Of a stretch of DNA of 64,000 nt, positions 307-44,678 are shown in pieces. The translations under genes and the position numbers were made by a program. The notes under the pieces were generated by a model. The model searched no databases. It saw only the letters and a program-made list of their open reading frames with translations, and had not been told where the DNA came from. This DNA comes from a virus (taxonomy: Duplodnaviria; Caudoviricetes). The stretch's first letter is position 1. Each line of letters starts with the position of its first letter. The stretch lies in the IMG/VR virus record IMGVR_UViG_3300044614_001923; one strand, given 5' to 3'.

Positions 307-1572
307 CTATTTCTTCTTATACTTATTTATGAAATTCTTAATTTCTTTTGTTCCCGTCATTTTCATTGTATATTCACGATATGCATCCGTTCCAACTTCT
401 CTTTGGTCGGCAGGAACTCCAGATTTGTTAGTAAATCCACTTTGAATATTTCTTGTTTGAGGGACAAATGCTCCGTATGATACGGGTTTATGATCCTCTT
501 TATCTGCTGCTTTTTTAGATTCCACCACATCTTTAATCCAACATTTAAACATAATACTATCTTCAGTAACGCAAATCAAATAATTTGTTCCTCTACGAAT
601 AATACGTCCAACTAGTCCAGTATTAAGATTTTCAACAATATCTCCAATTCTAAAAATGTTTTCTTGGATATAATTTTCACGAAGGTTTTTCCAATCCAAC
701 TTAGGAGCAATTTCCCAAAGATTCCATCCCTCTTTAATATTCATTGCAGCACGAATGGTATTATAGAGTTCTTTTGCTTGTTTCTCATTGAATGTGGAAG
801 GAACTCCTTTTCTAAAGGTTTTAAAATCTCCTTCTGCTGCGGCCTTTCTTTGCTTAGATGCAGACATACCAGACACATCATCTTCAGAATCAGGATCCCT
901 TTCCCCAGCAGAACGAACTTCTAAATTATCAAATTGATAGAGTTTACCATTATAATTATTGGAAAGTTTTTCAAACTCATTAACTCTATCAGCACCACCT
1001 ACAATTCTTACGTTAGTATATCCATCCATATGTGCCTTTTTAAGAACATCGAAGATGGTACGATTTGCCTGATCATTTATAATTCTTTCACTATGCTGAG
1101 GAAACATTTGCCTCATAACAGAAACTTTAGTATCAGCATCTAATGGATTCTTTTTCTTATCCTGACTTCTTGATGGAACAATAATATAATCACCATCATC
1201 AGAAGATGTTGCTACGGTATTTAAAAGTTTTTCATGTCCAGTTGTTGGTGGATTGAACCGCCCAAAAGCAATAGTTAAAGTTCCTTTTGTTTTTGGTACT
1301 GGAGGTGGACCTTCCACTTGAGGTTCTTGCTGAGACTGAACTTCTTTTGGAATTTCTTGATCCTTTACTTTTTTTTCTTGAGGAGGGTCTTGCTTTCCAA
1401 TTTTTTGATTTTTATTATAAAACTTAAGTTTTCCACCCTCAGTCTTCGCTGTAAATTCTCCATTTTTATCGTACCATCCACCATGCCCATCTCCAGTTAA
1501 ACCGAGACGAGATGCTTGCTGAACAGCAAGAGACTTTGATGCTTCAGAAAGAAATTGTAAAAAACTTTTCAT
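307..1572 (-). CDS. Cytidyltransferase-like (HIGH-superfamily) nucleotidyltransferase with N-terminal CTS-like leader
   Basis: FGRFNPPTTGHEKL (TxGH motif) and GMSASK (KMSKS-like); start reassigned to ATG 1572 (MKSFLQFLSE), downstream of ATAAATA at 1593-1599. Confidence 0.8.
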   Translation of the reverse strand: MKSFLQFLSEASKSLAVQQASRLGLTGDGHGGWYDKNGEFTAKTEGGKLKFYNKNQKIGKQDPPQEKKVKDQEIPKEVQSQQEPQVEGPPPVPKTKGTLTIAFGRFNPPTTGHEKLLNTVATSSDDGDYIIVPSRSQDKKKNPLDADTKVSVMRQMFPQHSERIINDQANRTIFDVLKKAHMDGYTNVRIVGGADRVNEFEKLSNNYNGKLYQFDNLEVRSAGERDPDSEDDVSGMSASKQRKAAAEGDFKTFRKGVPSTFNEKQAKELYNTIRAAMNIKEGWNLWEIAPKLDWKNLRENYIQENIFRIGDIVENLNTGLVGRIIRRGTNYLICVTEDSIMFKCWIKDVVESKKAADKEDHKPVSYGAFVPQTRNIQSGFTNKSGVPADQREVGTDAYREYTMKMTGTKEIKNFINKYKKK

Positions 1573-3349: not shown

Positions 3350-4819
3350 TCAGTGCTTTTCGTCACCACTAGGTGGTTTTGCCTTTGCCATTCTAGTTCC
3401 AGCAGCATCGCCAAACTTATCTCTTAGAGAAATTTTTTCTCTTCTTGGAGATACATATCCAACTCCAGGAACTACACCTGTCTTACCAGCATCTCTTGCA
3501 GCATTTCTTGCTTCTGCTCTTGCTGCTGCTCTCTTACGATTTTTCTCGTAAGAACTCATTGCCTCATCAAGCCACGCTTCAAACTGTTCCTTAGCAATCT
3601 CACCCATTGCTTTTTGCTTACGGAGTTTCTTAGGATTCTTGGTTACGCCGCCAGGACCCTCTGAAGGATAGTCATGATCTTGAGTTCTTCCAACACCATG
3701 AACAGCACCAGATCTTGCTCTTTCTCTATCATTGGCAGTCATTTCACCTCTTCCGTAATGAGGACCACCTCTAAGAGATCTCCACATATGCTTCTCAGCG
3801 GACTTCACTTTTTTAGTTTTTTCTCCTCTTTGAGAATACTCAGATGCTGGTTTATTAGTTCTCTTACTAACAAGTTTTCCGTATGCTGCAGATGCTTTTG
3901 GAGTTTTACCGTAGGAACCTTCTGCTTCATCAAGATAAAACTCATACATATCATCCCAGGTGTAATCAGAAAGGTCATAACCTTCTTCTACCAGAGCATC
4001 TACCCAGAACTCAAACTCTTCTTTATTAATTTCTGCTGCTCTTCTTGCTGCTTTGCTTCCCTTTCCAACATTAGAATATGATTTTGGCCAATTGGAACCT
4101 GCTACTTTGCGATTGGGAGGAGTTCCCAGAAGTCCATCTTTATTAGAGCGTCTGATGTGCTTGATTAATGCAACATTATCACCTTGACCTGCTTTTGCTC
4201 TACCAGAAGCATGAGTACGGTTAGCAATCATTTCTGCTGCTTTTGCTTTACCCTTTTCACTGGTAATTGCTTCATCAAGTTCTTCCTCACCGAGAATAAT
4301 ATTAATCGCTTCCTCATCAATCAGATTTGCCATCATCCACTCAGCATCTTCAAAAGTTTCTGCATATCCCTCAACATAGAGAAACTCAAGAATAGTATCA
4401 AACAGATCAAAAGACTCATCTCCCATATTGAGTTGCTTTTTCTCATTAGGAGTCAATGCTGCAGATCCTCTCTGTGCTCCTCTTGCTGCCTGCTTTGCTT
4501 TTACTGCAGGGTCTGTAGACTTATGGGCATAACCATGTAGACCAGGACTTGAAGAAGTAGTCTTACGGAAATCTCCTCTTTGCTTTCTAGCAAGATTTTC
4601 CCTTGCTTTTTGCTTTTCACTATCTCCGTAAGTTGGTTTGTCTGCAAGTTTAGTTGCTCTATCTGCTGCTGCACCACCACCAGTTGACTTAGCAATTTTT
4701 TGGCGAATAGGTGCCTCATCATAACCACGCTTTGCCATCGCAGTTGCTTCATCAACTTCTTGAGGAGTATGCACTTCAGCATACGCTTCCATTATGCCCT
4801 TAAAATCTTTGATGTCCAT
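3350..4819 (-). CDS. Modular acidic/basic protein, candidate gp21-processed internal head polyprotein
   Basis: 489 aa; Lys/Arg-rich blocks separated by acidic EGY-containing spacers ending in LDEA/VDEA; TATAAATA upstream. Confidence 0.6.
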   Translation of the reverse strand: MDIKDFKGIMEAYAEVHTPQEVDEATAMAKRGYDEAPIRQKIAKSTGGGAAADRATKLADKPTYGDSEKQKARENLARKQRGDFRKTTSSSPGLHGYAHKSTDPAVKAKQAARGAQRGSAALTPNEKKQLNMGDESFDLFDTILEFLYVEGYAETFEDAEWMMANLIDEEAINIILGEEELDEAITSEKGKAKAAEMIANRTHASGRAKAGQGDNVALIKHIRRSNKDGLLGTPPNRKVAGSNWPKSYSNVGKGSKAARRAAEINKEEFEFWVDALVEEGYDLSDYTWDDMYEFYLDEAEGSYGKTPKASAAYGKLVSKRTNKPASEYSQRGEKTKKVKSAEKHMWRSLRGGPHYGRGEMTANDRERARSGAVHGVGRTQDHDYPSEGPGGVTKNPKKLRKQKAMGEIAKEQFEAWLDEAMSSYEKNRKRAAARAEARNAARDAGKTGVVPGVGYVSPRREKISLRDKFGDAAGTRMAKAKPPSGDEKH

Positions 4820-17965: not shown

Positions 17966-18153
17966 TTCTTAAGACTTTCAAAGTAATCTTTTTTGGCAAT
18001 CTTTCCTTTATATCCAGGATAATATTTTTCAACAAGTTTAGGCAAACCCATTGCTGCAATAGATCCAATTTCAGTCACCCAAATTTCTTTGGTATCAAAT
18101 TTAATAACATGCTCGTAAGGAAATTTAGTCTTCATAATTAATTTTATTTTCAA
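17950..18153 (-). CDS. Small hypothetical protein
   Basis: 67-aa ORF between CobS-like gene and Lys-rich ORF. Confidence 0.65.
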   Translation of the reverse strand: MKIKLIMKTKFPYEHVIKFDTKEIWVTEIGSIAAMGLPKLVEKYYPGYKGKIAKKDYFESLKNQLAN

Positions 18154-18808
18154 TAATAGAATGACATTCTACCATAAATTGATGAAATGTTTTACCTGAG
18201 TAATTAAAAGAATCGTTCAACTTTGCCATCTGAACGCCTGTTTTTGAATTTCTCTCCCCCATTCCCAACTTTTTATAAATTCTACCTCTTTGTTCTGCCC
18301 CCTCCTCATCACTTCTCTTTCTTTTCTTTCCAGTAGAACTGATTGCAGTAGGAGTATTTGTAGCAACTCCTTTTTTCTCTTTCATCTTAGATGCAACATC
18401 CTTTAGAGCACCAACAAATGCTCTAGCTTTCTGTCCAGGTTCTTTAATGCTTCTTTTTGGAGAACCTACAGTAATATCATGAACCTCAGAATCTTTTTTA
18501 GCTCCAGTTTTATGAAACTGTTTTTTTAATTCTTTGGCATCAACTTTTTCACCCTCTTTATGTTTTTGTTTTGCAGTATGAGCAGCATAATCTCCAGGAG
18601 ACTTATGAGTTCTTACCCAAACAGGAACATCCTTTCCACTCTTTTCTACTTTTGGATCTTGAATGGGACCCTTTTTTCTAAATCCAGCTCTTGCAACATC
18701 TTTTCTTGCAGCACCTTCAGATCCAGGAATTGGCATAGTGCCAGATTTCCCAGATCCTTTCATTTTCATTAATGTTCTCTCATCAAGGATTTCTTCCTGA
18801 AAGTGCAT
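18125..18808 (-). CDS. Lys-rich hypothetical protein, candidate internal head protein
   Basis: 227 aa; ILDE near N-terminus, GKTFHQFMVE near C-terminus; CTAAATA at 18829-35. Confidence 0.65.
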   Translation of the reverse strand: MHFQEEILDERTLMKMKGSGKSGTMPIPGSEGAARKDVARAGFRKKGPIQDPKVEKSGKDVPVWVRTHKSPGDYAAHTAKQKHKEGEKVDAKELKKQFHKTGAKKDSEVHDITVGSPKRSIKEPGQKARAFVGALKDVASKMKEKKGVATNTPTAISSTGKKRKRSDEEGAEQRGRIYKKLGMGERNSKTGVQMAKLNDSFNYSGKTFHQFMVECHSIIENKINYED

Positions 18809-18831: not shown

Positions 18832-21015
18832 TTAGACTACAAGAGAAATAAACTCTCCAAGAACTTTTTTGTTTAGTTTTTTAGTTTTGAGAGATTTTAC
18901 AAAAGCAGACTTGATTTGCGCTTTGGTTGCACATTCATGAACATCAAACTCAGTATCCTGAGAAAGCGCAGTTGCAGACATTCCAAAGTAAGCATCATAT
19001 CCAGATTTAGTAATAGTAAAACTCTTCAGTTTTTTCCAATCATTCTGAATTTTATCATATTCCTTACTATAGTTTTCATGATACATGTTTACAAAACGTC
19101 CGAAGTTACGACCTTCAAGAACACGAATCCCAATAAAATTCATAGAAGAAAACTTATCTTTCAAGTTCCGAAGAAGAACATCAGTAAAATTATGATATCC
19201 ATAATCAAACATGTAAGTTGTTCCAATCTTTCGATCCCTAAGAAATGTATTCTGAGGATAGACACTAGCAATGCCCAGATAAGGTTCTTTCTCCCAACGA
19301 CGATTAACTTCCCTATGATAAGCAAGTTGATTTGCTTCACCATCAGTCAGAACAATACACTGAACCTTTTGCAGTTTATTTTCTTTCTGAAACTTAGGAA
19401 GAATTTGGTGAAGAGTGATTAGTGCTTCATTTAGTGGGGTTCCAGACAGACACAAACGATTAGGATATGTGTAAGGGCATCGATAGGTATCACTAAAGCA
19501 ATAGGCAAGACGCCAAATATTAAGCATTTGATTTTCCAATTCTTTACCAGAAACTTTACTGGTAAGAATATTCATCATAGAAAATGTCTCATCTACACAA
19601 AGCAAACTTTCCCTTTTCTGATAATGGGGAGTACGATCTGCCGCAAAATACTTTCCAGTTTCATAATCATACTCACCACGCCTCCACTCATTAGTGAAAG
19701 CATAAACCTCAAAGGGAATGGAAACTTTCTTACAGAACCAAACAAGGTTGAAGAGTTGCTTACAAGTATCAAGCATCACATCGGACATAGAACCGCTCCA
19801 ATCCAATACAAACACAAGTCCATGATTCTTACCATCAGGAATCACAGAAACTTTCTTAAAAAGGTCCTCATTGTATTTGTATGTATGCAGGCGAGTAGTA
19901 TCAAGAACACCTGTACGAGCAGTAGAGGAGCGGGCATACTGATCTGCTGCTTTACGGCACTCAAATTCTTTCACCAGATAATTGACTTCTTTCTGAGCAG
20001 AAGATTTAAATTTTTTAAATTCAATGTCAGTCTCTTTATAGAGATCTGTAGGAACAATTCCTCTTTCCTCTGCAGTATTATTTTGGATTTTTTGCTGATG
20101 AGCAAATGAGTCATTAATATCTTTATGAATATCAAAATTCATTCCAATAACCGTATCAAGATTTACCTGAGGAACTTCCACATAAACATTATCATATCCA
20201 CCCTCCTTTACAAGATCACGAATCTTATCTTGCAAAGAATCTGCGGTACGAACTTCTGGTTCATCCTCTTTACCTACAGAATTTACTTGAGTTTGATCAC
20301 CATGAGCAGTTCCACCATAAGAAGTGTCAGATTCTAGAGGTTGAGAGTTGTCACTATTCCCCTCTTGCTCAGAAGAAGAGTCATTGCTCTCCACAGATTC
20401 ATTTCCAGAAGACTCAGAATTTCCTTGAGTTTCTTGATAATCAAGGTCGGAAACTTTTTGTTGCTCCTGTTCTTTCTTACAGTACTTATAAAGTTCTTCT
20501 GCCGCAATCAGAGTATCTGCAAAAGTTTCAGACGCATCAATCAAATTAATGATTTCTTTCTCTTCTACATTAAAATTAAGAGGAATAAAATTCCCAATCT
20601 TAAAGTAAAGATTTACACGGTCGGCAAGATTAAAAGTAGAAATATTCTCATCAGCAATCTGAAAGAAATCATCTTCATTCAGTTCTTTATATCCATTGAA
20701 AAAAGTCTTTGCAAGACCAGCATATTTACGCTTCATCAGTTTCTCAATACGAGCATCCTCAACAACGTTTACAAACTGTGCAGGAACTTTTACATTTTCC
20801 GTCCAGTCCTCATCGGGAGTGAAGAGTGCATGTCCAACCTCGTGACCCACCAGAAGGTCATAGACGGTGTTGCTTGCCTTATCCCACATTGGCAGGGTCA
20901 GCACACGAGTATGAACGTTAAAGCAGGCAGTCTCCACCTTCTTGTGCTCAACCACAAGGTCTTCGGTGGCAAGAAGTTTAGCAAGTTGGGACTTGATTTC
21001 GTGGCGGACGGTCAT
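18832..21015 (-). CDS. HExxH metallopeptidase-like plus VWA (CobT-like) domain protein
   Basis: HEVGH and EDARIE at N-terminus; DWSGSMS MIDAS, GTPL, VLTDGE; start at MTVRHEI because the promoter overlaps the longer start. Confidence 0.8.
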   Translation of the reverse strand: MTVRHEIKSQLAKLLATEDLVVEHKKVETACFNVHTRVLTLPMWDKASNTVYDLLVGHEVGHALFTPDEDWTENVKVPAQFVNVVEDARIEKLMKRKYAGLAKTFFNGYKELNEDDFFQIADENISTFNLADRVNLYFKIGNFIPLNFNVEEKEIINLIDASETFADTLIAAEELYKYCKKEQEQQKVSDLDYQETQGNSESSGNESVESNDSSSEQEGNSDNSQPLESDTSYGGTAHGDQTQVNSVGKEDEPEVRTADSLQDKIRDLVKEGGYDNVYVEVPQVNLDTVIGMNFDIHKDINDSFAHQQKIQNNTAEERGIVPTDLYKETDIEFKKFKSSAQKEVNYLVKEFECRKAADQYARSSTARTGVLDTTRLHTYKYNEDLFKKVSVIPDGKNHGLVFVLDWSGSMSDVMLDTCKQLFNLVWFCKKVSIPFEVYAFTNEWRRGEYDYETGKYFAADRTPHYQKRESLLCVDETFSMMNILTSKVSGKELENQMLNIWRLAYCFSDTYRCPYTYPNRLCLSGTPLNEALITLHQILPKFQKENKLQKVQCIVLTDGEANQLAYHREVNRRWEKEPYLGIASVYPQNTFLRDRKIGTTYMFDYGYHNFTDVLLRNLKDKFSSMNFIGIRVLEGRNFGRFVNMYHENYSKEYDKIQNDWKKLKSFTITKSGYDAYFGMSATALSQDTEFDVHECATKAQIKSAFVKSLKTKKLNKKVLGEFISLVV

Positions 21016-21036
21016 AGGTTTGATTCGTATGAACTC

Positions 21037-21091
21037 ATGATACAAAAAAAGAGGGTGGTTAAACCCTCTGATGTGCCAGTTTAAAAAGTGG
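21037..21091 (-). promoter_or_regulatory. Promoter with CCACTT-N4-AACTGGCACA upstream motif and hairpin/T-tract in spacer
   Basis: TATCAT at 21037-42; 29 nt to AACTGGCACA (21072-81); GAGGGT-TTAACC-ACCCTC hairpin followed by T7. Confidence 0.55.
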
Positions 21092-21093
21092 AC

Positions 21094-21627
21094 TCAAACT
21101 CCTTTTACAGGCATTCCTGGTTTTGAAAGTATTTTATTATTAAGTTCTATCCCCTTTCTTTTCTGTGCATTTGTTTTTGGACCCTTATTAACAAACTTCT
21201 CAAAATCATCTAGAGGATCTTCAGCATTATATCCAAAAGTTGCATGTTTTTCAACAATACTCTGCTTCCACTCTCCACTCATATTTGCCATAATAGCAAG
21301 TGCTGCCTTGTTGGTATCTGCGTAACCTTCGGCAACTAGATGCTCAAGAATATGGTCGAAGAGGTCGGTTTCTACTTCTTCTTTGTTGAGTTCTGCAGCT
21401 CTCCTTTTTGCTTTGTTTCCTGCACCCCTATCTCTATTTGCTCCCTGAGTGTCTGCCCAATAATCCTTATTTCTTCTATTCATTTCACCACCAACACTAC
21501 GTTCTTCTGGAGGAGCACTTCTTCCACCACGTTTTCTCATTGATCCAAATTTAGGATCTAATGCTTCATCAAGTTCACAAACCTGATTATAAGCTTCTTG
21601 AAGGGCACGAAGTTCTTGCGAGTTCAT
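21094..21627 (-). CDS. Modular acidic/basic protein related to 3350..4819
   Basis: LQEAY leader, LDEA site, DLFDHILEHLVAEGYADT spacer; TATAAATA at 21647-54. Confidence 0.7.
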   Translation of the reverse strand: MNSQELRALQEAYNQVCELDEALDPKFGSMRKRGGRSAPPEERSVGGEMNRRNKDYWADTQGANRDRGAGNKAKRRAAELNKEEVETDLFDHILEHLVAEGYADTNKAALAIMANMSGEWKQSIVEKHATFGYNAEDPLDDFEKFVNKGPKTNAQKRKGIELNNKILSKPGMPVKGV

Positions 21628-28426: not shown

Positions 28427-29842
28427 TCACATGAGGTTCTTGATTTGTACTCTTCTGTAGTAACGGTTCTTGTTGACAGTGAGAGCACCCAGACCCTGAT
28501 CTGAAGCATCGCCATGTGCAAATGGGTTTGCAACCAGACCATAACGGGTCTTGAAGCCAATCTTTGGCTGGAAGGTGTTTTCTCCAACTGCACGTACCAT
28601 CTGGAGAGGTACATAAGGGCAGTAGAAGAGACCTGCGTCGTAAGGTGAAGAACCCTTGTAACCAGCAACGTAGTACTGAGTTGCAGCACTGTTTGCTGAA
28701 TAAGGATCGATATAGACGCGGAACTTGCCCATCAGAACGCCAGCAAAAGTATTGCCAGTGTCATCAACGTTCAGGTTAGCGTTGAGTGCAGGGGTGTAAT
28801 CTAGAACACCAGCCATGCTCAGTGCTGAAGCAACGTCAGCGGAGCAAAGGATGATGTTGCCCTTTCCTCTACGAGTTCTTTGTGCGATTGCGTTAGCATC
28901 ACGCTCGATTTGGAACAGGAGACCCTTGAACTTCTCAACACTCCAACGTCCGTTTGAATCAACGTCAAGGTCAAAGATACCCTGAGTTGCAACGTTAGTA
29001 GCAGCGCCTTGCTCAGCAACCTTATAGATGGTTCTGATGACTTCGCGGTTGATTTCAGCAAGAATTTCGCTAGACAGAATGTTAGCGAGTTCTGCTTCAG
29101 CATTAAGACCATGAATTGCCTTCAGGTCTTGTGCAAGCTCAAGGCTGTACTCTGCTTTCAGAGCGCGTGACTTTGCTTCAACAAGAACTTTCTCGATTGA
29201 GAATGCCATCTCGTTGAACTGAGGACCACCATCAACGCCAAGATTCTCAGCGTCTCCAGTTCTCATACCCTGACCAACGTTATACAGGGCTTGGTCTTGG
29301 GTTGAAGTTGGGTTCAGAATACCTGGATTTGATCCAAGTTGACCGCTGGTAGTACCCATACCTACGTTAGGTGCAGTTGAACCTGCGGTATTACCAACAC
29401 CAGTGAAGGAACCAGCGAATGAAGTATCTGCTTCGTTGAACAGTGCTTCAGTTCCGCTCTGGCTATTGTAGCGTGAACGCATTGCGAAGATGAGTCCAGT
29501 AGGACCGTTCATTGGTTGAACGCCTGCGAGGTCATAAGCGACCAGATTAGGCATTGAACGTCTGATCAGTGAGATCAGAACAGGATCGAAACCTGCAACA
29601 GGACCACCTGCAACAGCACCACCACCATATCCACCACCACCAGCAGCGCCGTTAGCAGCATTGGTTGGGGTTTCGGTGAGGAATCCTTGCTGAGCAAAGG
29701 ATTGCTCTTCTCTTAGAAATCTTTCTTGGTTTTCGAGCAGGACAGCGGTTACGGCTCTTCTGTGTGAATCCTTGATTGGATCAAGACCTTCATAGTTCAG
29801 AAGGGGTGCCCACTTTTCCTGCAGATGCTCGGAATGGAACAT
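28427..29842 (-). CDS. gp23: Major capsid protein gp23
   Basis: KWAPLL, GVQPMNGPTGLIFAMRSRY, RALKAEYSLELAQDLKAIHG, FKTRYG. Confidence 0.98.
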   Translation of the reverse strand: MFHSEHLQEKWAPLLNYEGLDPIKDSHRRAVTAVLLENQERFLREEQSFAQQGFLTETPTNAANGAAGGGGYGGGAVAGGPVAGFDPVLISLIRRSMPNLVAYDLAGVQPMNGPTGLIFAMRSRYNSQSGTEALFNEADTSFAGSFTGVGNTAGSTAPNVGMGTTSGQLGSNPGILNPTSTQDQALYNVGQGMRTGDAENLGVDGGPQFNEMAFSIEKVLVEAKSRALKAEYSLELAQDLKAIHGLNAEAELANILSSEILAEINREVIRTIYKVAEQGAATNVATQGIFDLDVDSNGRWSVEKFKGLLFQIERDANAIAQRTRRGKGNIILCSADVASALSMAGVLDYTPALNANLNVDDTGNTFAGVLMGKFRVYIDPYSANSAATQYYVAGYKGSSPYDAGLFYCPYVPLQMVRAVGENTFQPKIGFKTRYGLVANPFAHGDASDQGLGALTVNKNRYYRRVQIKNLM

Positions 29843-31133: not shown

Positions 31134-31787
31134 TTATAGTGAATTTAAGAAGTCGTTGAAAAGATTAATCTTATTTTCTTCAAGTTGTTTTTGATCTACT
31201 AAACTATTGATTTTTTTATATGCTTGAGAAGCATACTTCTCACGAAGAATACCTCCATCCCATACCCATTCTTTACCTTCCATGATTCCCTGAACAAAAG
31301 CATCAGGTGCAGAAGGATCTGCAACAATATCTGCTGCAGTTGCAAGCATAAAGTCTTCACCGACTTCTTTATATCCTTCTCTATGATTTTCTTTCAGAGA
31401 TCCGATTCCCCGAGAAGATACGCCAAGAGTAACTCCGTCCTTGAGAAGTGACTCTGCAATTTTACCCATTGGAGTGGATAGAATTTGTGCTTTACCGATA
31501 AAATTATTTCCTTCACGATAGAGTTCAATAATTTTATGTGATACTCTATCCAGATTTATAGTTGGACCATCAGGATGTCCAAGTTCACCAAGAGCACGTC
31601 CTTTTTCAACATATTGTTCAGTATAACGCTTTACTTCACGTTCCATAATGGACATAGGATACATCCTTCCATTACGGTTAACACATTCTGCTTGAAGAAA
31701 AGGACCCTTAACGAAAAGTTTTTGTTGTTTTCCAGTTCCTTCTGTAAGAACTTCTACCTTTTCGATTTCTTCTCTGATTAGTTTCAT
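31134..31787 (-). CDS. gp21: Prohead protease gp21
   Basis: ALGELGHP, RVSH, GVSSRGIGS, DIVADPSAP. Confidence 0.96.
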   Translation of the reverse strand: MKLIREEIEKVEVLTEGTGKQQKLFVKGPFLQAECVNRNGRMYPMSIMEREVKRYTEQYVEKGRALGELGHPDGPTINLDRVSHKIIELYREGNNFIGKAQILSTPMGKIAESLLKDGVTLGVSSRGIGSLKENHREGYKEVGEDFMLATAADIVADPSAPDAFVQGIMEGKEWVWDGGILREKYASQAYKKINSLVDQKQLEENKINLFNDFLNSL

Positions 31788-37315: not shown

Positions 37316-37561
37316 TTACCAATCTGGATATTCCCAAACTGTGTTATCTAATGCTGATTTTTGTGGGTATAATTTTCTACTTTTTTTGATTCTTTTTATG
37401 GTACATTCTTTGCATTCATAAGAATATGATGAAGGAACAGATCCTCTATCTTTTCTAGTTCTATAAAAAGAGTCGATTAAATTTTTTATTTGACCGCAAG
37501 ATCTACACTTTCTATCGTTTAATAGAAGATGACCTAATCTTATTTGTCCATCTAAGTCCAT
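37316..37561 (-). CDS. Small CxxC...CxxC zinc-finger-like protein
   Basis: CRSC and CKEC; TAATG overlap with gp17 stop. Confidence 0.65.
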   Translation of the reverse strand: MDLDGQIRLGHLLLNDRKCRSCGQIKNLIDSFYRTRKDRGSVPSSYSYECKECTIKRIKKSRKLYPQKSALDNTVWEYPDW

Positions 37562-39207
37562 TAGACATAATCCCACATATAGGACATATCACCATATTCA
37601 TCAGAAAACCATCTGTCTCCATCAGAATCTACAAAACTAGAATTATCTAATCCATCAACAACAAAACCAAATGGTGACATATCTTGTTCTATTTGATTTT
37701 TTTGCTCTTCATACAATCTCTTTCTAATATCTTGATCAGTGAGTTCTTTAAAGTAATCTTGTGCAACTAGCCATGCATAAATTACAAGACACATTGCAAG
37801 GTCATCATTACATCCATCTTCAGCTTCAAATGAATTGTTTTTCTGTATAAAGGTTGTTAACTCTGCTATGATTTCATAATCATTAAAAATAAGTTTATCT
37901 TCCTCAATTAAAGTTTTTAAATTCAGTGAACCAACTTTTTTTACAGTTTTGGACATCTTAACGCCAAGTTGCGTTTTCTTACCAGAAAATCCTTGCCCAA
38001 CAATTTGACCAGCTCTACCTCTCATAGAACACATGAGGACATTTTGATATTCTAAATCATAATGCAATAAAGATGCTACCTGATCACCTATATCATTTAC
38101 CTCACAAAGAATGTATGCGCGGTTATAATTTTTTGCTACTTCATAAATGATATTTGGAAATAGCATTGGTTTAATCTCATTGTTTCTATATTTTGCGACA
38201 ACTTTATGTGGAAATTCAGTTATATCAACTACGACAAAAGCTGAATAGTCCTCACTGACTCCTCTTGCAACGTCAACTGTAATAATATAGTCGTGTCCTT
38301 GAACCACGTCCTCATAAACATCTAGACCAGCATTCCTTTTTATTGGATTATCATACACTAAATTTCTCAATTTGCTTGGCGCAATTAGTGTATCGACTGA
38401 TCCTAAGAATTCACATTCAAACTCAATTTTGAATTGTTGTTCTGAAGTGTTGTTAATTGTTTGTTCTTTCCAGGCAGCGTCTCTTCCAGGAACTTCTGAC
38501 CAATGAACATCAGTTGGTACGTATTCATTTTTTCCCTTTTCCGCATCATGCCACATTCGGTAGAAATGATTCATACCGTGTGGCGTAGATACTACAATAA
38601 CCTTAGTATTTTTACCAGATGAAATTGTTGGGTATACGGATGCAAAGAAATCGTCAGCAATATGATTTGGAACGAAAGCAAATTCGTCCAAGAACAAGAT
38701 ATTAAATGACATACCTCTTACTGCTGATGCAGAAGTTGAAGCAGCAAGTATTTTTGATCCGTTTTCTAATTCAATATTTCCTTTATTCCAAGCAATAATT
38801 CCCTGCTGCATCCATTTTGGTAAATTTTCATATGCTGTTGCAAGTCTACTTAAAAGTTCTCTAGCAGTTGCAGCCTTGTTTGCAAGAATACCAATATTGA
38901 CACTATCGTTAAAAATTAGATAATGTAAGAGATAAGAAACTACAGTTGTAGATTTGCCTGTCTGGCGAGGCATTTTACAAATGTTAAATCTATGTTTATG
39001 AAAGTTATTAATTAACTTTTCTTGAAAGTGGTATGGATGAAATTGAGTTAATCCCTCATCAAGAGAAACAATTTTAATATAATTATTTGCAAAATAAACT
39101 GGATCATCTTTACACTTAACAAATTCTAAAATTTGTTCCTGACTAAATTCAATTTGAGTATTTGCTCTTTTTAAATTTGGATTGCCAAGATATACATTAT
39201 CAGTCAT
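37561..39207 (-). CDS. gp17: Terminase large subunit gp17
   Basis: PRQTGKS, LFLDEFAF, VSTPHG, DDLAM; no intein-size insertion. Confidence 0.97.
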   Translation of the reverse strand: MTDNVYLGNPNLKRANTQIEFSQEQILEFVKCKDDPVYFANNYIKIVSLDEGLTQFHPYHFQEKLINNFHKHRFNICKMPRQTGKSTTVVSYLLHYLIFNDSVNIGILANKAATARELLSRLATAYENLPKWMQQGIIAWNKGNIELENGSKILAASTSASAVRGMSFNILFLDEFAFVPNHIADDFFASVYPTISSGKNTKVIVVSTPHGMNHFYRMWHDAEKGKNEYVPTDVHWSEVPGRDAAWKEQTINNTSEQQFKIEFECEFLGSVDTLIAPSKLRNLVYDNPIKRNAGLDVYEDVVQGHDYIITVDVARGVSEDYSAFVVVDITEFPHKVVAKYRNNEIKPMLFPNIIYEVAKNYNRAYILCEVNDIGDQVASLLHYDLEYQNVLMCSMRGRAGQIVGQGFSGKKTQLGVKMSKTVKKVGSLNLKTLIEEDKLIFNDYEIIAELTTFIQKNNSFEAEDGCNDDLAMCLVIYAWLVAQDYFKELTDQDIRKRLYEEQKNQIEQDMSPFGFVVDGLDNSSFVDSDGDRWFSDEYGDMSYMWDYV

Positions 39208-39212
39208 AAAAG

Positions 39213-40487
39213 TTACCTTTGTTCAATCCAGTTCAATACTGCAAGTGCTTTTTTGTTGGTATTTGGAGATGCACAAGCAAGTGTATAAGTGTCACTAATT
39301 GTTCCAATGCCACTTCTACCTAACTGAAGTGCTGCTTTAATATCAAGATCAACTAACGCACCACTACCATTAATTACAAAACCACTCAAAAGATCACTTC
39401 CACCAGATACTGCAGTTTGAGTGATATTATACTGCATAAAGGAGTTTGGATCGGGATGATTTACCCAAGTTCCTCCAGTCAGTGTTGCATTTTGTAGAAG
39501 TTGCCAATAAACATTCGTATTGTCATCAGTTGCTGCCTGTAATGATCTCAAGAGCATTACACCAGTTAGATTATTGGATTTTAAACGAATGCTTATAATT
39601 GGATAGAATGTATTTGCTGATGCCATCGTTGTCCCTGTGATGGGATTTGATATGCTCAAAAGAGTTCCGAGTTTTTCTGGTTCTCCTTCCTGAATAAGAG
39701 AATTAGAACCCTGATACATGTAATGAGTTCCTGCAACACCAGTTACATTTTCTATCTCAAGTCTAATAGGCAAGAAAGGAGTGGAACACCAAACTCCTGG
39801 GTTGGTATTTGCATTATCAAAAGTATGAGATGCAACAGTCTCATTCTTCATTAACCAAGCAAATTGAATTATACCTGCACCATACCATTCATAATTGATG
39901 GAAATCATTTGTTGTTTTGTTGGATCTGCAGTTACTCCAGTCCACCCATTACCATCAAACTTCTCACCATTCCATTCATCTCTGTATACTCTGGTTTCTG
40001 TAACAATTCCAGTTACACTACTACGGAGCACATAAGAATATGTTCCTCCATCATCCTCAAAATAAACACCGTTGTTTTCATCAAACAATCCAAATCTTCT
40101 ACGAATACCTACTTTTGGTTGTTCTAGACGAACTGCGAATGCGAGTGTTGCACCTCTGCCAGGAATGTATCTCATCACATTCTTGGTTTGGCGAATTACT
40201 TTGCTTCCTGTAGTGGAACCAACTTGCATTATAACATTACTGGCATTTGCATTAAATGTTGCAGTTCCAACTCCAACTACTCTTTCATCCCATACATCAG
40301 TCTCTTTACCATACTGGAAGGTGTTGAAGAATACTGTTTGATAAGGAGATATTTTGAATCTGTTGTTGTTGGTAAATTGAGGTCTCCAGTCTGTCTGGTT
40401 TCCCCAGTGATCTGCGATATTATAAACTTCAAATAAAGATCTTTCTTGATTTAGAAAGTCTTGTTCGTTCTTATTCCATATAGCCAT
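39213..40487 (-). CDS. Hypothetical beta-rich protein, likely virion-associated
   Basis: 424-aa ORF, Thr/Gly/aromatic-rich, in the late cluster between gp16 and gp17. Confidence 0.6.
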   Translation of the reverse strand: MAIWNKNEQDFLNQERSLFEVYNIADHWGNQTDWRPQFTNNNRFKISPYQTVFFNTFQYGKETDVWDERVVGVGTATFNANASNVIMQVGSTTGSKVIRQTKNVMRYIPGRGATLAFAVRLEQPKVGIRRRFGLFDENNGVYFEDDGGTYSYVLRSSVTGIVTETRVYRDEWNGEKFDGNGWTGVTADPTKQQMISINYEWYGAGIIQFAWLMKNETVASHTFDNANTNPGVWCSTPFLPIRLEIENVTGVAGTHYMYQGSNSLIQEGEPEKLGTLLSISNPITGTTMASANTFYPIISIRLKSNNLTGVMLLRSLQAATDDNTNVYWQLLQNATLTGGTWVNHPDPNSFMQYNITQTAVSGGSDLLSGFVINGSGALVDLDIKAALQLGRSGIGTISDTYTLACASPNTNKKALAVLNWIEQR

Positions 40488-40490
40488 AAA

Positions 40491-40808
40491 TTAAATCCAC
40501 TCTAATTTTCCTGGATGATATCGTTTTGCGTTTTGAATATTAAAATTCTTTTCTTCCGCAGGATAGATATTATGGACAATTGCTCCAGGATAGTTTCCTT
40601 GAAGTTGTTCTCCTAATTCCTGTTTAGATGGAACTCCTGTTTTTGTGACAAGTTCAAGTCTATATATGCTGCCTTGCCACATAACATCGGCAACGTAACT
40701 TTCCCCCACTTGCTGAGGTTGTTCTGGTTGTGAGTTGATGTAGAGATTTCCGTTGAAATCTCCTGAGATGTTTACTGACTCAGATAGAAACTGTTTGAAA
40801 CTTTTCAT
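40491..40808 (-). CDS. Small protein with CTS-like leader (MKSFKQFLSE)
   Basis: Start reassigned to ATG 40808; body similar to a module of the 759-aa ORF. Confidence 0.7.
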   Translation of the reverse strand: MKSFKQFLSESVNISGDFNGNLYINSQPEQPQQVGESYVADVMWQGSIYRLELVTKTGVPSKQELGEQLQGNYPGAIVHNIYPAEEKNFNIQNAKRYHPGKLEWI

Positions 40809-40813
40809 TTTAA

Positions 40814-43093
40814 TCACCACTTAACCTTGTTTGCCCAGTATGCTGCAGACATTGGACCTTTATCAATGTTTTTTGCATGTCTTGTTTTAAATCTTTTACG
40901 TCGACTTGCATATTCTTTAGATTCTCCTTCTTTTTTGGGGGAACCTTTTACACCTCTTTGCCCAAAACGAATAATTTTTTCTTTTCCATCTGAACATGCC
41001 TTGACAACATGAGATTTGCCAGTCAGAGAATCACCAACTGCTTGTGCTTTTGGTTTATTGCATTTCATTTTATCTTTATCAATTGATTCTGCAAATGCTT
41101 GGAGAATTTGCTCGCCTGGCATAATATTATCTGCTTTAAAGTAAGTTACCTTACCTCCTGGATAGATCTTATTAATTTGATCTTGAACTTCCCCTCTATT
41201 AGGCATTTTTGAATTTGGGAAGAAGATCTTTAATGAGTAAAAAGATCCTTTCCAGGAAACATAAACTAATAAAAGATTTCCGCGTGCAGATTTTAGGGAT
41301 ACTGCCTCTTCAATTTGCTCTCCCATTGGTTTCACATAATTTTTATTTGGGCCTGGTTTTGCTGCACTTCCTCCAGCTGGTTTTTCATGATGGTCTTCTC
41401 CACAGGTTATGCAAGGAGACTGTCCACACTTACAATTACACTCTTTCTTTTCTTCTTTTACTAGAGGATCTGGTTTGATAAGATCTACAAATTCTACGAA
41501 AGGATTTCCATTTGCATCAGTAACAACAACACTTTCATTTGCAGATTTCCATCCACCACCTGCTTTCTTATATTCTTTAGCAGCCCAACCATTTGCATAA
41601 GCAGAAGGATATACATCAAACTTTGCTTTTGCCTTTGCCTTCATCTTAGACCAAAGTGAAGGATTAGTGGGAACGTTCTTTTCATTAAGAACTTCTGCTT
41701 CCATCTCAAGTAAAATTTTATCTACTAAAGAAGGTTCATAACCAGCATTAACGACTCCTGTTTTAATGCTTCCTTTTGCTAATGATGGTCCAGTTGTTTT
41801 TCTTTCCGCTGCTGCTCTCTCACCCTCAGTAGATCCTCTCTGAGCAAGAGTTCTAATCTTAGCAGCACGATTTTGTTCTCTATGCTTTTTGGGATCAATT
41901 GCCGCTGGAATTGCACTTTCAGGAACACAATTAGGAACTTCTTTCTTACCCTTCTTCTTCATCCCCACTTGCTTGTAACCTTTCCAACACGCTTCTTCAA
42001 TCTCGGATTCCCCGCTTTCAAGATAGTCCGCTGCAGTATCAATATAATCTGCCGCTTTGGTAATCTTTGATTGCACCCATGCCTCTAAATCACCTTCGCC
42101 TTTATTAACTTTATTCTTCAGTCTCGAAACTGCTTTAGAAATAGTTTCAAGTTCAGATCTTGCCATTGAATATTCTTCATCTTTAATTGAAACTTTATCC
42201 CATGCTTTTTCGCCATAAGCACATTCTGAACGGATTTCTCTCTTATCACAAAGCGGACAATATCTTTCCTCTTCACCACTCATATCATGCTCATGTTCTT
42301 CTGTTCTTGCTGCTCTCATATCCTGCCTTGCTCTCATCACATCATCTCTAGAAATAGCACCCCTAGTCCATGGATCCTCTGCAGCGGCTTTAACTGCTTG
42401 TGATCTTGTTAATGGTTTTGGTTTTACCGCATTTGGTTTATCCTCACCATACTTCGCAGTGGATTTTTTAGATCTGGTTGGTACATAAACCTTCCCTCCA
42501 CTACCAGTTGTTCCAATCTGCTTTCTTCCTTTTATTTTATCAACTAGATCACCGACTAAACCTTCTTCAATATTATTAGAAGACATGATTGGTTTTCCTC
42601 CCTTTCCTTTGCGATTTGCTACAGGATCTGCTTTTCTTTTTCTTTTTACTGAAGCAGCAATCTCACTCTTAGACATTTTTTCTGCCTTTTCATTTGAAAG
42701 ACATTTTGGTTTTGGTTCTCCAGGTTCACGCGCACATGGTCCAATTGCTTCACCTTTAGTGTTATATCTCTTCCAATTTCCTTCGGGATGATCTTTATCA
42801 AACCAGTTTCTTAGATCTTCATATGCTATTTTCTTTTTACTATGTTTAATTTCCCCTTTTTGTTTAGCAATCAATTTATTTGAATATTCCTGAGCATGGG
42901 ATGTGCTAGAAACATTCTCATCTGGAATTCCTTTTTTAGCAGTATCATAAATGTCAATATCACCATCAGCATCACGATCAACATACTGAACTGTTGCATG
43001 ATGAACCAACTGCTTTAAATCCAGATTTGGATCCAGCTGATGTTGTTTTTTTGGAAGATGGGGTGTTTTGTGAGAAAATTTTGGAGTTTTCAT
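40814..43093 (-). CDS. Multi-module basic/Cys-containing protein, candidate gp21-processed polyprotein
   Basis: 759 aa of short Lys-rich modules separated by Glu sites; ATAAATA at 43202-08. Confidence 0.7.
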   Translation of the reverse strand: MKTPKFSHKTPHLPKKQHQLDPNLDLKQLVHHATVQYVDRDADGDIDIYDTAKKGIPDENVSSTSHAQEYSNKLIAKQKGEIKHSKKKIAYEDLRNWFDKDHPEGNWKRYNTKGEAIGPCAREPGEPKPKCLSNEKAEKMSKSEIAASVKRKRKADPVANRKGKGGKPIMSSNNIEEGLVGDLVDKIKGRKQIGTTGSGGKVYVPTRSKKSTAKYGEDKPNAVKPKPLTRSQAVKAAAEDPWTRGAISRDDVMRARQDMRAARTEEHEHDMSGEEERYCPLCDKREIRSECAYGEKAWDKVSIKDEEYSMARSELETISKAVSRLKNKVNKGEGDLEAWVQSKITKAADYIDTAADYLESGESEIEEACWKGYKQVGMKKKGKKEVPNCVPESAIPAAIDPKKHREQNRAAKIRTLAQRGSTEGERAAAERKTTGPSLAKGSIKTGVVNAGYEPSLVDKILLEMEAEVLNEKNVPTNPSLWSKMKAKAKAKFDVYPSAYANGWAAKEYKKAGGGWKSANESVVVTDANGNPFVEFVDLIKPDPLVKEEKKECNCKCGQSPCITCGEDHHEKPAGGSAAKPGPNKNYVKPMGEQIEEAVSLKSARGNLLLVYVSWKGSFYSLKIFFPNSKMPNRGEVQDQINKIYPGGKVTYFKADNIMPGEQILQAFAESIDKDKMKCNKPKAQAVGDSLTGKSHVVKACSDGKEKIIRFGQRGVKGSPKKEGESKEYASRRKRFKTRHAKNIDKGPMSAAYWANKVKW

Positions 43094-43245
43094 TCAACTG
43101 GTTTTGATTTTGTCTTTTCACCTTTTGCTCTCTTTTTTCTCGCAGCGCAATGGGCACGTTGAGAAAATCCTTTTGGATTTGAGCAATCAATACTCTTTTT
43201 ATATTTATTAGACCAATCTTCTTGAAATTGTTTAAATGTCTTCAT
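43090..43245 (-). CDS. Small basic protein (51 aa, MKTFKQFQEDWSNKYKKSIDCSNPKGFSQRAHCAARKKR...)
   Basis: Translated by hand; overlaps gp16 stop; ATGA overlap with 759-aa ORF; not in ORF track. Confidence 0.75.
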   Translation of the reverse strand: MKTFKQFQEDWSNKYKKSIDCSNPKGFSQRAHCAARKKRAKGEKTKSKPVE

Positions 43246-43681
43246 TTTTTGTTTGTTGTTTAAGAAGTTTTGCTAATTCTGCAGTTGAACCAACAAATAA
43301 TGCATTTGTTACATTAGTTGGACCTTTTGATTGCTTTTCTTCTTCAATATCTTTTAGTTTTTTCTGTAAATCCATTAACTTATCTGTAGCATCTGCTACA
43401 TTTTTAATTAATTGTCCAGCAACTTCATATGCTCTGGGCATTTCACTTTCTTGAGCAAGTTCAAGAATTCCATTAATTGCCTCTTGACCTTTTTCTATTA
43501 AAGAATATAAATTACCTCTAGTATATTCATAGTCTTTTTTTATGTGATCAGATTCTGTAGACTTTGATATTTTTTCAATCTTCTCAACAGAAGTCTCAGA
43601 AACTTCCACTGGAGAAATTTCTGAAACCTCATCATTGGAAAGTCCAAATGTTTGATTTAGGCTGTCAAAATTTTTTTTCAT
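43232..43681 (-). CDS. gp16: Terminase small subunit gp16
   Basis: DYEYTRGNLYSLIEKG, PRAYEVAGQLIK, NALFVGSTAEL. Confidence 0.92.
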   Translation of the reverse strand: MKKNFDSLNQTFGLSNDEVSEISPVEVSETSVEKIEKISKSTESDHIKKDYEYTRGNLYSLIEKGQEAINGILELAQESEMPRAYEVAGQLIKNVADATDKLMDLQKKLKDIEEEKQSKGPTNVTNALFVGSTAELAKLLKQQTKNEDI

Positions 43682-43682
43682 A

Positions 43683-44678
43683 TCAGAAAGATGAATTGAA
43701 TCCAAAATCATCACCGTAACTTACAAGCGCATCATCAGCTGCTGTTATCTTATAAATTTGCGATCCAAGTAGATGATTTGTTATTCTTGTTCCATAAGAA
43801 CCTCTTGTAACATTCAATTTGTTTCCTGTTTTACTAGTTACAAATAATGTCTCATTGTCTATGGAAATGTATGATTTAACTGGAATATTTGTAGCATCGG
43901 ATACTTCAAAGACTGCATCTGAAATTTGAATATCTGTCTCTAGAACCGCAACAGTTTGATTTGCGAGTGAAGTAGTTGCTTTTGGTTCTGAAGTATAAGT
44001 AACATCTCTGTTTGTAGAATTTGCACCTCCAGAAAGATATCCAATAGAAACTTTTTTGATGATATCTTTTTCGACACCAGTTGCAATTGGGCCAAACAGA
44101 TAAGTTTTTGCATTGAACTTTAAAGTATAAATTAATGCTCTTCGAGTTGAAAAATCTCCCTCATAGTCATCTTCCATTGTAATACCTTCAAGGGTTATTG
44201 GAATATCTCTTTTTTCTCCAATAGTATCAAGTAAATCAACCGTAAGAGTATATGATGGTTGAAAATAAGGAACAATTTGTTCAATAATTTGCAACATATC
44301 ATCATTTAATTTTGTCATTATACTCATTTCAAATTGCATGGTGTATGGAACAGGCATGTATGCCTTTCTTAAATCACCTTCAGAAGTTTTTGAAATAAAT
44401 GTTTGAGTTGTTTGTAGTTTTCTAGAAACGTCATAAAATAATCCGTTAAATTCAAATGACATTCTTGGCAATGTAATTTGAACTGGATTGTTTAAATCAT
44501 CTGGAGACTCTCTAAGTCTTGATAAAAACTTTTGAGTGGGACCATATGCTAAAGGAACCTTAACAACTTCGACAACATTACCACTATTGTCTGTTTTCTT
44601 TATCTGTATATTATTAAATAAGGTTCCAAAAGTTACAATAGTTCTTCTTAGAGTCTCGTGATAAAAATATTCAAACAT
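43683..44678 (-). CDS. gp15: Tail sheath terminator gp15
   Basis: FGTLFNNI, VPLAYGP, LPRMSFE, QIVPYFQP. Confidence 0.92.
   Translation of the reverse strand: MFEYFYHETLRRTIVTFGTLFNNIQIKKTDNSGNVVEVVKVPLAYGPTQKFLSRLRESPDDLNNPVQITLPRMSFEFNGLFYDVSRKLQTTQTFISKTSEGDLRKAYMPVPYTMQFEMSIMTKLNDDMLQIIEQIVPYFQPSYTLTVDLLDTIGEKRDIPITLEGITMEDDYEGDFSTRRALIYTLKFNAKTYLFGPIATGVEKDIIKKVSIGYLSGGANSTNRDVTYTSEPKATTSLANQTVAVLETDIQISDAVFEVSDATNIPVKSYISIDNETLFVTSKTGNKLNVTRGSYGTRITNHLLGSQIYKITAADDALVSYGDDFGFNSSF

Follow-up and report, generated by a model that had tools for sequence, protein, structure and literature searches.

We analyzed a 64,000-nucleotide (nt) stretch of viral DNA (IMG/VR record IMGVR_UViG_3300044614_001923), referred to below as the window, which comes from a T4-like cyanomyovirus. 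At the center of the analysis is an open reading frame (ORF) of 759 amino acids (aa), which an earlier note on this DNA had read as a polyprotein of small domains and which lies on the minus strand at the place given there. The gene order on this strand is g15, g16, a 51-aa ORF, the 759-aa ORF, a 105/109-aa ORF, a gene for a 424-aa virion protein and g17, followed by g18, g19, g20, a g67-like ORF, g21, g22 and g23 (Table 1). Stop and start codons overlap between g16 and the 51-aa ORF and again between the 51-aa and 759-aa ORFs, and the 759-aa gene therefore belongs to the late structural operon. The T4 late promoter sequence TATAAATA was absent directly upstream of the gene, which appears to be co-transcribed with g13-g17.

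The 759-aa ORF is a member of T4-GC119, a hypervariable virion-protein family of T4-like cyanophages. Apart from the 51-aa ORF it directly follows g16, and the same arrangement is found in phages S-BM3, Sf-CH8 and S-SM1. Its modules are 70-73% identical to the T4-GC_119 protein of S-BM3, and it shares the LRxWF, RYCxxC and CWxGY module types with SSM1_115, the GC119 protein of S-SM1. No full-length homolog was found in cultured phages; separate stretches of the protein match separate small proteins of unrelated phages. T4-GC119 itself is already known as a virion protein of unknown function. Sullivan et al. (2010; PMC3037559) listed it as a structural protein with 13 peptide counts in S-SM1 virions (Table S8) and with genes of 276-2985 nt in 16 phages, the family being absent from S-PM2; their description assigns no function, does not analyze modules and makes no connection to the gp21 protease or to a capsid-targeting sequence (CTS). 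The T4 CTS, the specificity of gp21 and the idea of polyvalent proteins are likewise established, and we found no paper that ties cyanophages to a CTS or reads T4-GC119 as a protease-released chain. The earlier view that an effector-delivery strategy of this type escapes standard annotation is partly correct; the family had already been catalogued as a virion structural protein.

The 759-aa protein is a chain of about twelve small modules, mostly basic (lysine-rich) and independently folding. An AlphaFold2 model of the whole protein, made with a fragment alignment, contained confident islands (predicted local distance difference test, pLDDT, 75-96) at about residues 100-160, 270-360, 370-430, 470-520 and 600-660, separated by low-confidence linkers. 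The predicted template modeling score was 0.29, which points to domains with no fixed mutual arrangement. Seven of the candidate cleavage Glu residues fell in segments with pLDDT <50, two lay at segment edges, and E367 was in a loop. Pfam recognized DUF5872 alone in the 759-aa protein, and likewise on single segments, below its cut-off. It did not find DUF6321, the usual database label of the T4-GC119 family, in this member, although both DUF5661 and DUF6321 occur in its relatives. Neither Pfam nor PHROGs revealed a peptidase or enzyme domain or any scaffold homology, the hits being to domains of unknown function only, and a Foldseek search against PDB returned nothing at E <= 0.001 (weak rows to YkzG and phi29 p6 were not used).

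Table 1. Features of the window. Positions are window coordinates; within a sequence, a slash marks a known or candidate cut after Glu; pI, isoelectric point.
Feature	Position	Strand	Remarks
759-aa modular ORF, T4-GC119 family	40814..43093, stop codon included	minus	84 kDa, pI 9.4
Residues 1-92, N-terminal module FSHKTPHL...DRDADGDIDIYD	42818..43093	minus	ends KKIAYE/D
Residues 93-177, Cys-pair module DLRNWF...GPCAREPGEPKPKC	42563..42817	minus	ends NNIEE/G, canonical site
Residues 178-276, basic, mostly disordered, few relatives	42266..42562	minus	ends SGEEE/R, no hydrophobic P3
Residues 277-367, RYCPLC zinc-ribbon-like and helical YSMARSE...ADYLESGE units	41993..42265	minus	ends SEIEE/A
Residues 368-392, 25-aa ACWKGYKQVGMKKKGKKEVPNCVPE beta-hairpin, Cys pair	41918..41992	minus	ends VPE/S
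Residues 393-471, helical module (HREQNRAAKIRTLA...)	41681..41917	minus	ends EVLNE/K
Residues 472-547, DUF5872-like KNVPTNPSLW...YPSAYANGWAAKEY and DANGNPFVEFVDLIKP unit	41453..41680	minus	ends LVKE/E
Residues 548-596, five-Cys segment (CNCKCGQSPCITC) and KPGPNKNYVKPMGE	41306..41452	minus	ends QIEE/A
Residues 597-669, beta-rich module	41087..41305	minus	ends QAFAE/S
Residues 670-759, C-terminal module SIDKDKMKCNKP...AAYWANKVKW, phrog_7595	40817..41086	minus	very basic, pI 10.2
g15	43683-44678	minus	
g16, small terminase	43232-43714	minus	
51-aa ORF, leader MKTFKQFQED, then WSNKYKKSIDC...	43090..43245	minus	overlaps 759-aa ORF by ATGA
105-aa ORF, phrog_1742, start MKSFKQFLSE/S	40491..40808 (105/109-aa form: 40491-40820)	minus	
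424-aa virion structural protein, phrog_1645	39213-40487	minus	
g17, large terminase	37561-39207	minus	
gp21 prohead protease homolog, proposed processing enzyme	31134..31787	minus	phrog_207, E 2.9e-81
gp23, major capsid protein	28427..29842	minus	
421-aa nucleotidyltransferase-like protein, phrog_395, family T4-GC190	307..1572	minus	leader MKSFLQFLSE/A

Individual modules have relatives of several kinds. The Cys-pair module (residues 93-177) has a 77-aa stand-alone relative in phage C72C1, where it adjoins a 57-aa DUF5872 protein, the stand-alone relative of residues 472-547. A kinship of the 51-aa ORF with the Cys-pair module was also considered and rejected, as the comparison gave no similarity. 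Residues 597-669 and the 109-aa ORF downstream are paralogs (33% identity over 51 aa, E 1e-6); an alignment of FLSE/SVNISG from the 105-aa ORF with IEE/AVSLKS was not supported, since the similarity is limited to this 51-residue core. The C-terminal module type forms a stand-alone gene in a pelagiphage, a roseophage and other phages, with N-termini that align to the residue after E669. In pelagiphage HTVC106P, for example, gp30 (79 aa) starts MAIDKSKMKCN..., which aligns with FAE/SIDKDKMKCN of the 759-aa protein. Like the 759-aa protein, 2 others of the 29 complete relatives end with this phrog_7595 module. Residues 277-367 make up the sole clearly acidic fragment (pI 4.8) and are present in 24 of the 29. 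In addition, residues 40-48 of the N-terminal module (window about 42950-42976) read DRDADGDID, an EF-hand-like DxDxDG loop, and similar loops occur in relatives (VDHDADGDVD in Sf-CH8 and two DNDGD copies in the protein of locus L045).

The modules recur in different combinations across the family. The positional orthologs of Sf-CH8 (402 aa) and S-BM3 (337 aa) contain the same modules but order them differently. We also drew 80 IMG/VR loci from around the conserved 424-aa gene; in these, the gene immediately 5' of the 105-aa ORF encodes 175 to 1013 aa, with modules gained, lost and reordered. The flanking 424-aa protein may be 95-97% identical, yet the family proteins then differ in length and share only about 30% identity. 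Many relatives have the module of the 51-aa ORF (WSxKYKKSIDC) joined in frame to the chain's N-terminus, and the 51-aa ORF of the window ends ...PVE where these fused forms read ...PFSE/A. Shorter proteins with shared modules numbered more than 2000 in a database search, and a relative is present in 505 cultured-phage records. Outside the T4-like phages, modules are carried as separate genes, as in HTVC106P and C72C1, and in podoviruses and siphoviruses these sit among small genes of unknown function, in HTVC106P beside an M15A peptidase gene. The view that the modules are real units was thus borne out by their shuffling in orthologs, their occurrence as separate genes in unrelated phages and their separate AlphaFold islands. 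Contrary to what had been supposed, they are not evolutionarily unrelated but are drawn from a repertoire that keeps recurring, with DUF5872 among its members and, in relatives, DUF5661 and DUF6321 as well. Small genes that were once separate, some of them T4-internal-protein-like with a capsid-targeting leader of their own, were probably joined in frame to give the chain.

Leaders of this kind are present in the window. In T4, positions 4 and 7 of the CTS leader target a protein to the capsid and positions 8 and 10 direct its processing, which is blocked by Asp at position 10 (PMC9026906); gp21 cuts after Glu, e.g. at ITE-6 and LTE-619 in Alt (PMC5694885). In the T4 record, ipII and ipIII start MKTYQEFIAE/A, ipI starts MKTFKEF..., and gp23 is cut at ...GSFLTE/A. 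We found that three ORFs of the window, those of 105, 51 and 421 aa, start with a T4-like leader (Table 1). A six-frame scan of the window matched the leader pattern six times in all, three of these being the ORF starts. The leader of the 105-aa ORF is kept in all homologs retrieved. T4-GC190, the family of the 421-aa protein, has been found in S-SM1, S-SCSM1 and S-CREM2 virions, which fits a working address tag on that protein. Furthermore, the gp21 homolog of the window is 41% identical to T4 gp21 with its His and Ser motifs kept, and the gp23 propeptide site ...QQGFLTE/T aligns with that of T4, the FLTE/ being conserved.

Leader-like sequences also occur inside members of the family. Among 159 family proteins, 56 contained strict motifs, 57 in total, whereas shuffles gave 1.6. 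The majority have the sequence KTFVQFVSE/AKKSEMKC and stand directly before the C-terminal module type of the 759-aa protein, in which the matching junction is a weakened form, ILQAFAE/SIDKDKMKCN. A second motif, SNWRxxF...E/, precedes the DUF6321 module in relatives.

Next to the modules, the Glu sites were compared with chance. All nine Glu junctions quoted in the earlier note are present in the translation, and the T4-type (I/L)xE rule applies to part of them: NIEE, EIEE, LNE and QIEE are strict, VKE and FAE fit the looser [LIVMF]xE, and AYE, GEEE and KDEE fit neither. Over the whole protein, nine of ten [LIVMF]xE motifs lie at module junctions (E177, E367, E392, E463/471, E547, E592/596 and E669), E534 alone being internal, so that seven junctions carry the motif, four of them in the strict [LI]xE form. 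The KKIAYE/D site is non-canonical, with Ala at P3 and Ile at P4, and falls in a low-pLDDT segment (residues 80-93); another such segment (564-600) spans QIEE/A.

In the family as a whole we examined the 293 distinct 10-mers found directly before 13 module types in the 159 proteins. The motif was present in 72% of them and some Glu in 97%. Random 10-mers from the same proteins carried the motif in 13% of cases (standard deviation, SD, 2) and composition-preserving shuffles of the junction 10-mers in 32% (SD 2.4, maximum 38%), so that real junctions exceeded the shuffles 2.2-fold. We also called homology breakpoints automatically and independently of the module calls. Because calling from ungapped high-scoring segment pairs is noisy, many breaks being indels inside modules, well-supported breakpoints alone are informative. 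These carried the motif in 49% of cases vs 16% at random positions, and none of 1000 randomizations was as high; control motifs ending in Lys were unenriched and those ending in Asp weakly enriched. Results from both approaches showed that module boundaries in homologs coincide with hydrophobic-x-Glu sites, the point on which the earlier note had staked its proposal.

Module types differ in this respect. The motif was carried by 55 of 65 contexts upstream of the ACWKGYKQVGMKKKGKKEVPNCVPE module type and by only 8 of 39 upstream of the helical SMARSE module. Because it is rare there, SMARSE probably forms one unit with the preceding RYCPxC module, and in the 759-aa protein the RYCPLC and YSMARSE units are probably one piece. 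The boundary proposed at KDEE/YSMARSE is therefore probably not a real one; in the model a helix runs through it.

Members of the family occur in virions or are recorded as virion proteins. SSM1_115 (495 aa), from the phage whose purified virions yielded T4-GC119 in mass spectrometry, has RYCxxC, LRxWF, DACY, CWxGY and DUF6321 modules behind VVAE/, AVLE/, EIQE/, SFQDFQE/ and TQNE/. ORF29 of S-SCSM1 (517 aa) has the same kind of architecture and is recorded as a virion protein; the study of that phage used mass spectrometry of particles purified in cesium chloride (CsCl).

From the sequence comparisons taken together, we consider it somewhat probable that the 759-aa protein is a fusion of internal-protein-like units which is loaded into the prohead and there cut by gp21. 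We infer that it would be built into the prohead core and that gp21 would cut it at E177, E367, E392, E471, E547, E596 and E669; E92 and E276 are further possible sites. The predicted products are 8-10 pieces of 3-11 kDa, mostly with pI 9-10. Pieces retained in the head would be stored alongside the DNA and, like T4 IPI-III, pass into the host together with it.

Several observations weigh against this reading. The T4 capsid loses the majority of its small cleavage fragments, and the pieces predicted here may or may not be retained and injected. The 759-aa ORF starts MKTPKFSHKT, which is not a T4-type leader, and contains no full internal CTS-like motif. It is here that the polyprotein proposal of the earlier note falls short, while the gp21 homolog, the gp23 site, the leaders and the relatives in virions speak for it. 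The number of [LIVMF]xE motifs within the protein equals chance (10 observed vs 11.6 expected from shuffles), and a motif excess was accordingly rejected; three of the nine quoted junctions (AYE, GEEE and KDEE) have no hydrophobic residue at P3. Moreover, the junction figures overstate independence because contexts share descent. A scarcity of the motif inside module cores, taken as possible selection against internal cutting, was not counted (ratio 0.40, few conserved families, reversed-motif control 0.63). The stand-alone modules of podoviruses and siphoviruses show that the modules are not inherently head cargo. Finally, the T4-GC119 protein annotated in Syn9 was undetected in Syn9 virions (PMC3037559), and published virion proteomics of family members reported no fragment sizes or Glu-terminated peptides.

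Some of these points would fit a multidomain virion protein that stays uncleaved, its domains tethered like beads on a string in a decoration, internal or neck-associated position. The acidic, Glu-rich linkers would then be flexible spacers, and the motif a relic of fusions or of former leaders. The family is detected in virions, where fragments are not evidenced, and the 759-aa protein lacks an N-terminal targeting leader. Internal Met relics, e.g. ...EMI/RYCPKC, show the fusion of formerly separate genes, and the linkers are so rich in Glu that even shuffled junctions often carry the motif. Composition does not fully account for the real junctions, however, which surpass the matched shuffles, and the Lys- and Asp-ending controls show no comparable enrichment. 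Some relatives retain internal T4-like leaders in full, including the residues that direct processing (positions 8 and 10). In addition, the modules function as separate genes elsewhere, and the phage encodes a Glu-specific protease, which would meet exposed linkers inside the prohead. We therefore regard an uncleaved protein as rather unlikely.

An accessory component of the prohead core or scaffold, like T4 gp67, gp68 and gp22, would likewise be cut by gp21, with most fragments expelled after a role in assembly. Cleavage at numerous L/I-x-E sites followed by expulsion is the fate of T4 core proteins (PMC5694885), in some relatives the 105-aa and 424-aa genes directly follow g20 and a g67-like gene, and few modules are as widely kept as the helical acidic unit (residues 307-367). 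A scaffold role is nevertheless improbable, given that the family is extremely plastic beside near-identical flanking genes, that most pieces are basic, folded and Cys-paired and occur as genes of their own in phages that lack a T4-type head, and that family peptides are present in mature virions. It is less probable still that the protein is not packaged here and provides tethered host-takeover or nucleic-acid-binding domains in the infected cell, the junction motif being unrelated to gp21: the small non-structural neighbors of stand-alone module genes in other phage types and the Syn9 result would agree with this, but the gene belongs to the late structural operon, where stop and start codons overlap, and the proteins of two cultured relatives are in, or recorded as part of, CsCl-purified virions.

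Internal-protein-like cargo released by gp21, the reading we favor, can be set beside several known systems. As with T4 IPI, IPII, IPIII and Alt, a near-identical leader is carried by neighbors and relatives of the 759-aa ORF (MKSFKQFLSE/S vs MKTYQEFIAE/A), the shared residues being aromatic ones at positions 4 and 7, I/L at position 8 and Glu at position 10. Like the T4 internal proteins, the predicted products are small and basic, the locus is hyperplastic as is the T-even internal protein locus, and the protease and gp23 site are conserved. Each T4 internal protein has one gene and one N-terminal leader, whereas here about twelve modules share one ORF with internal sites; compared at the sequence level, the modules have no similarity to IPI-III, and the 759-aa ORF has no N-terminal leader. 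T4 gp22, gp67 and gp68, the source of internal peptides II and VII, are precursors with several hydrophobic-x-Glu gp21 sites, some of whose peptides stay in the head, and in the 759-aa protein such sites are predicted. Those proteins are acidic or helical and sequence-conserved, with roles in assembly, unlike the shuffled basic folded modules of the 759-aa chain.

Head and inner-body proteins of phiKZ, 201phi2-1 and SPN3US also have several sites where a T4-related protease cuts after Glu, comparable to the predicted sites here, and the AYE/D junction would fit the phiKZ-type motif (S/A/G)-x-Glu better than the T4 motif. They are separate large proteins with propeptides, share no sequence with the 759-aa protein and form no chain of shuffled mini-modules. 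Polyvalent proteins, proposed to be packaged, injected and cut into functional units, resemble it in having many unrelated domains in one polypeptide encoded beside virion genes (Iyer, Burroughs, Anand, de Souza and Aravind, 2017; PMC5512222). They are large, enzyme-rich and usually have their own zincin-like peptidase, whereas the 759-aa protein consists of small domains with no peptidase and would need the prohead protease in trans; the paper does not mention cyanophages. The other T4-GC119 members (DUF6321 domain-containing proteins in GenBank) share with the 759-aa protein the position after g16, the module repertoire (S-BM3, Sf-CH8, S-SM1 and S-SCSM1) and the variable length. Most of them end in DUF6321, unlike the 759-aa member, which ends in phrog_7595 and has an extra basic segment at residues 178-276.

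In a wider and more tentative view, cyanophages may have inherited a T4-ancestral loading system, consisting of a 10-residue tag and a Glu-specific protease, and extended it into a combinatorial polyprotein cassette. The hypervariable late gene would then supply interchangeable basic proteins, released by gp21 in the head and injected as fast-evolving anti-defense or host-takeover factors. T4-like cyanophages are among the most abundant ocean viruses, and a substantial fraction of marine Synechococcus and Prochlorococcus dies from their infections. If the polyprotein reading is correct, it would give a mechanism to a very common and variable "hypothetical virion protein", with its hundreds of cultured-phage records and thousands of metagenomic proteins, and a working context to a dozen domains whose function is unknown, DUF5872, DUF5661 and DUF6321 among them. 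It would also show that the capsid-targeting system of T4 has been conserved over a very deep split in the family.

Further observations concern other genes of the window and of related loci. The very basic 227-aa ORF at 18125-18808 (minus strand) starts MHFQEEILDE/R and has SGKTFHQFMVE/CHSIIENKINYED near its C-terminus; this may be a further cargo gene, capsid-targeted or fused, and it adjoins the ORF at 18832-21045, which another note on this DNA called VWA-type. At loci L006 and L045, a nucleotidyltransferase-like gene lies directly upstream of a family protein of 938-1013 aa starting MASWEEFSRIVAE/A. Within the DUF6321 module core of relatives (e.g. at residues about 530-540 of the L014 protein), a conserved ...KLQTAVTE/KKP... 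is a candidate internal cleavage site in a Pfam domain.

The 424-aa protein begins MAIWNKNEQDFLNQE and, judged by its size, probably corresponds to T4-GC15, which is one of the cyanophage core proteins and has been detected in virions of S-SM1 and Syn9. At loci L007, L015, L024-L028, L039, L047 and others, the 105-aa leader gene and the 424-aa gene directly follow g20 and the g67-like gene and not g16; the pair therefore moves between packaging and head modules. Four of the five matches to TATAAATA in the window lie just 5' of coding-strand ORF starts (4839, 21647, 31107 and 32336, minus strand), the genes behind them being ORF 3350-4819, ORF 21094-21627, g22 and the g67-like ORF. These four sites resemble T4-type late promoters; the total of TATAAATA matches in the window is not above chance.

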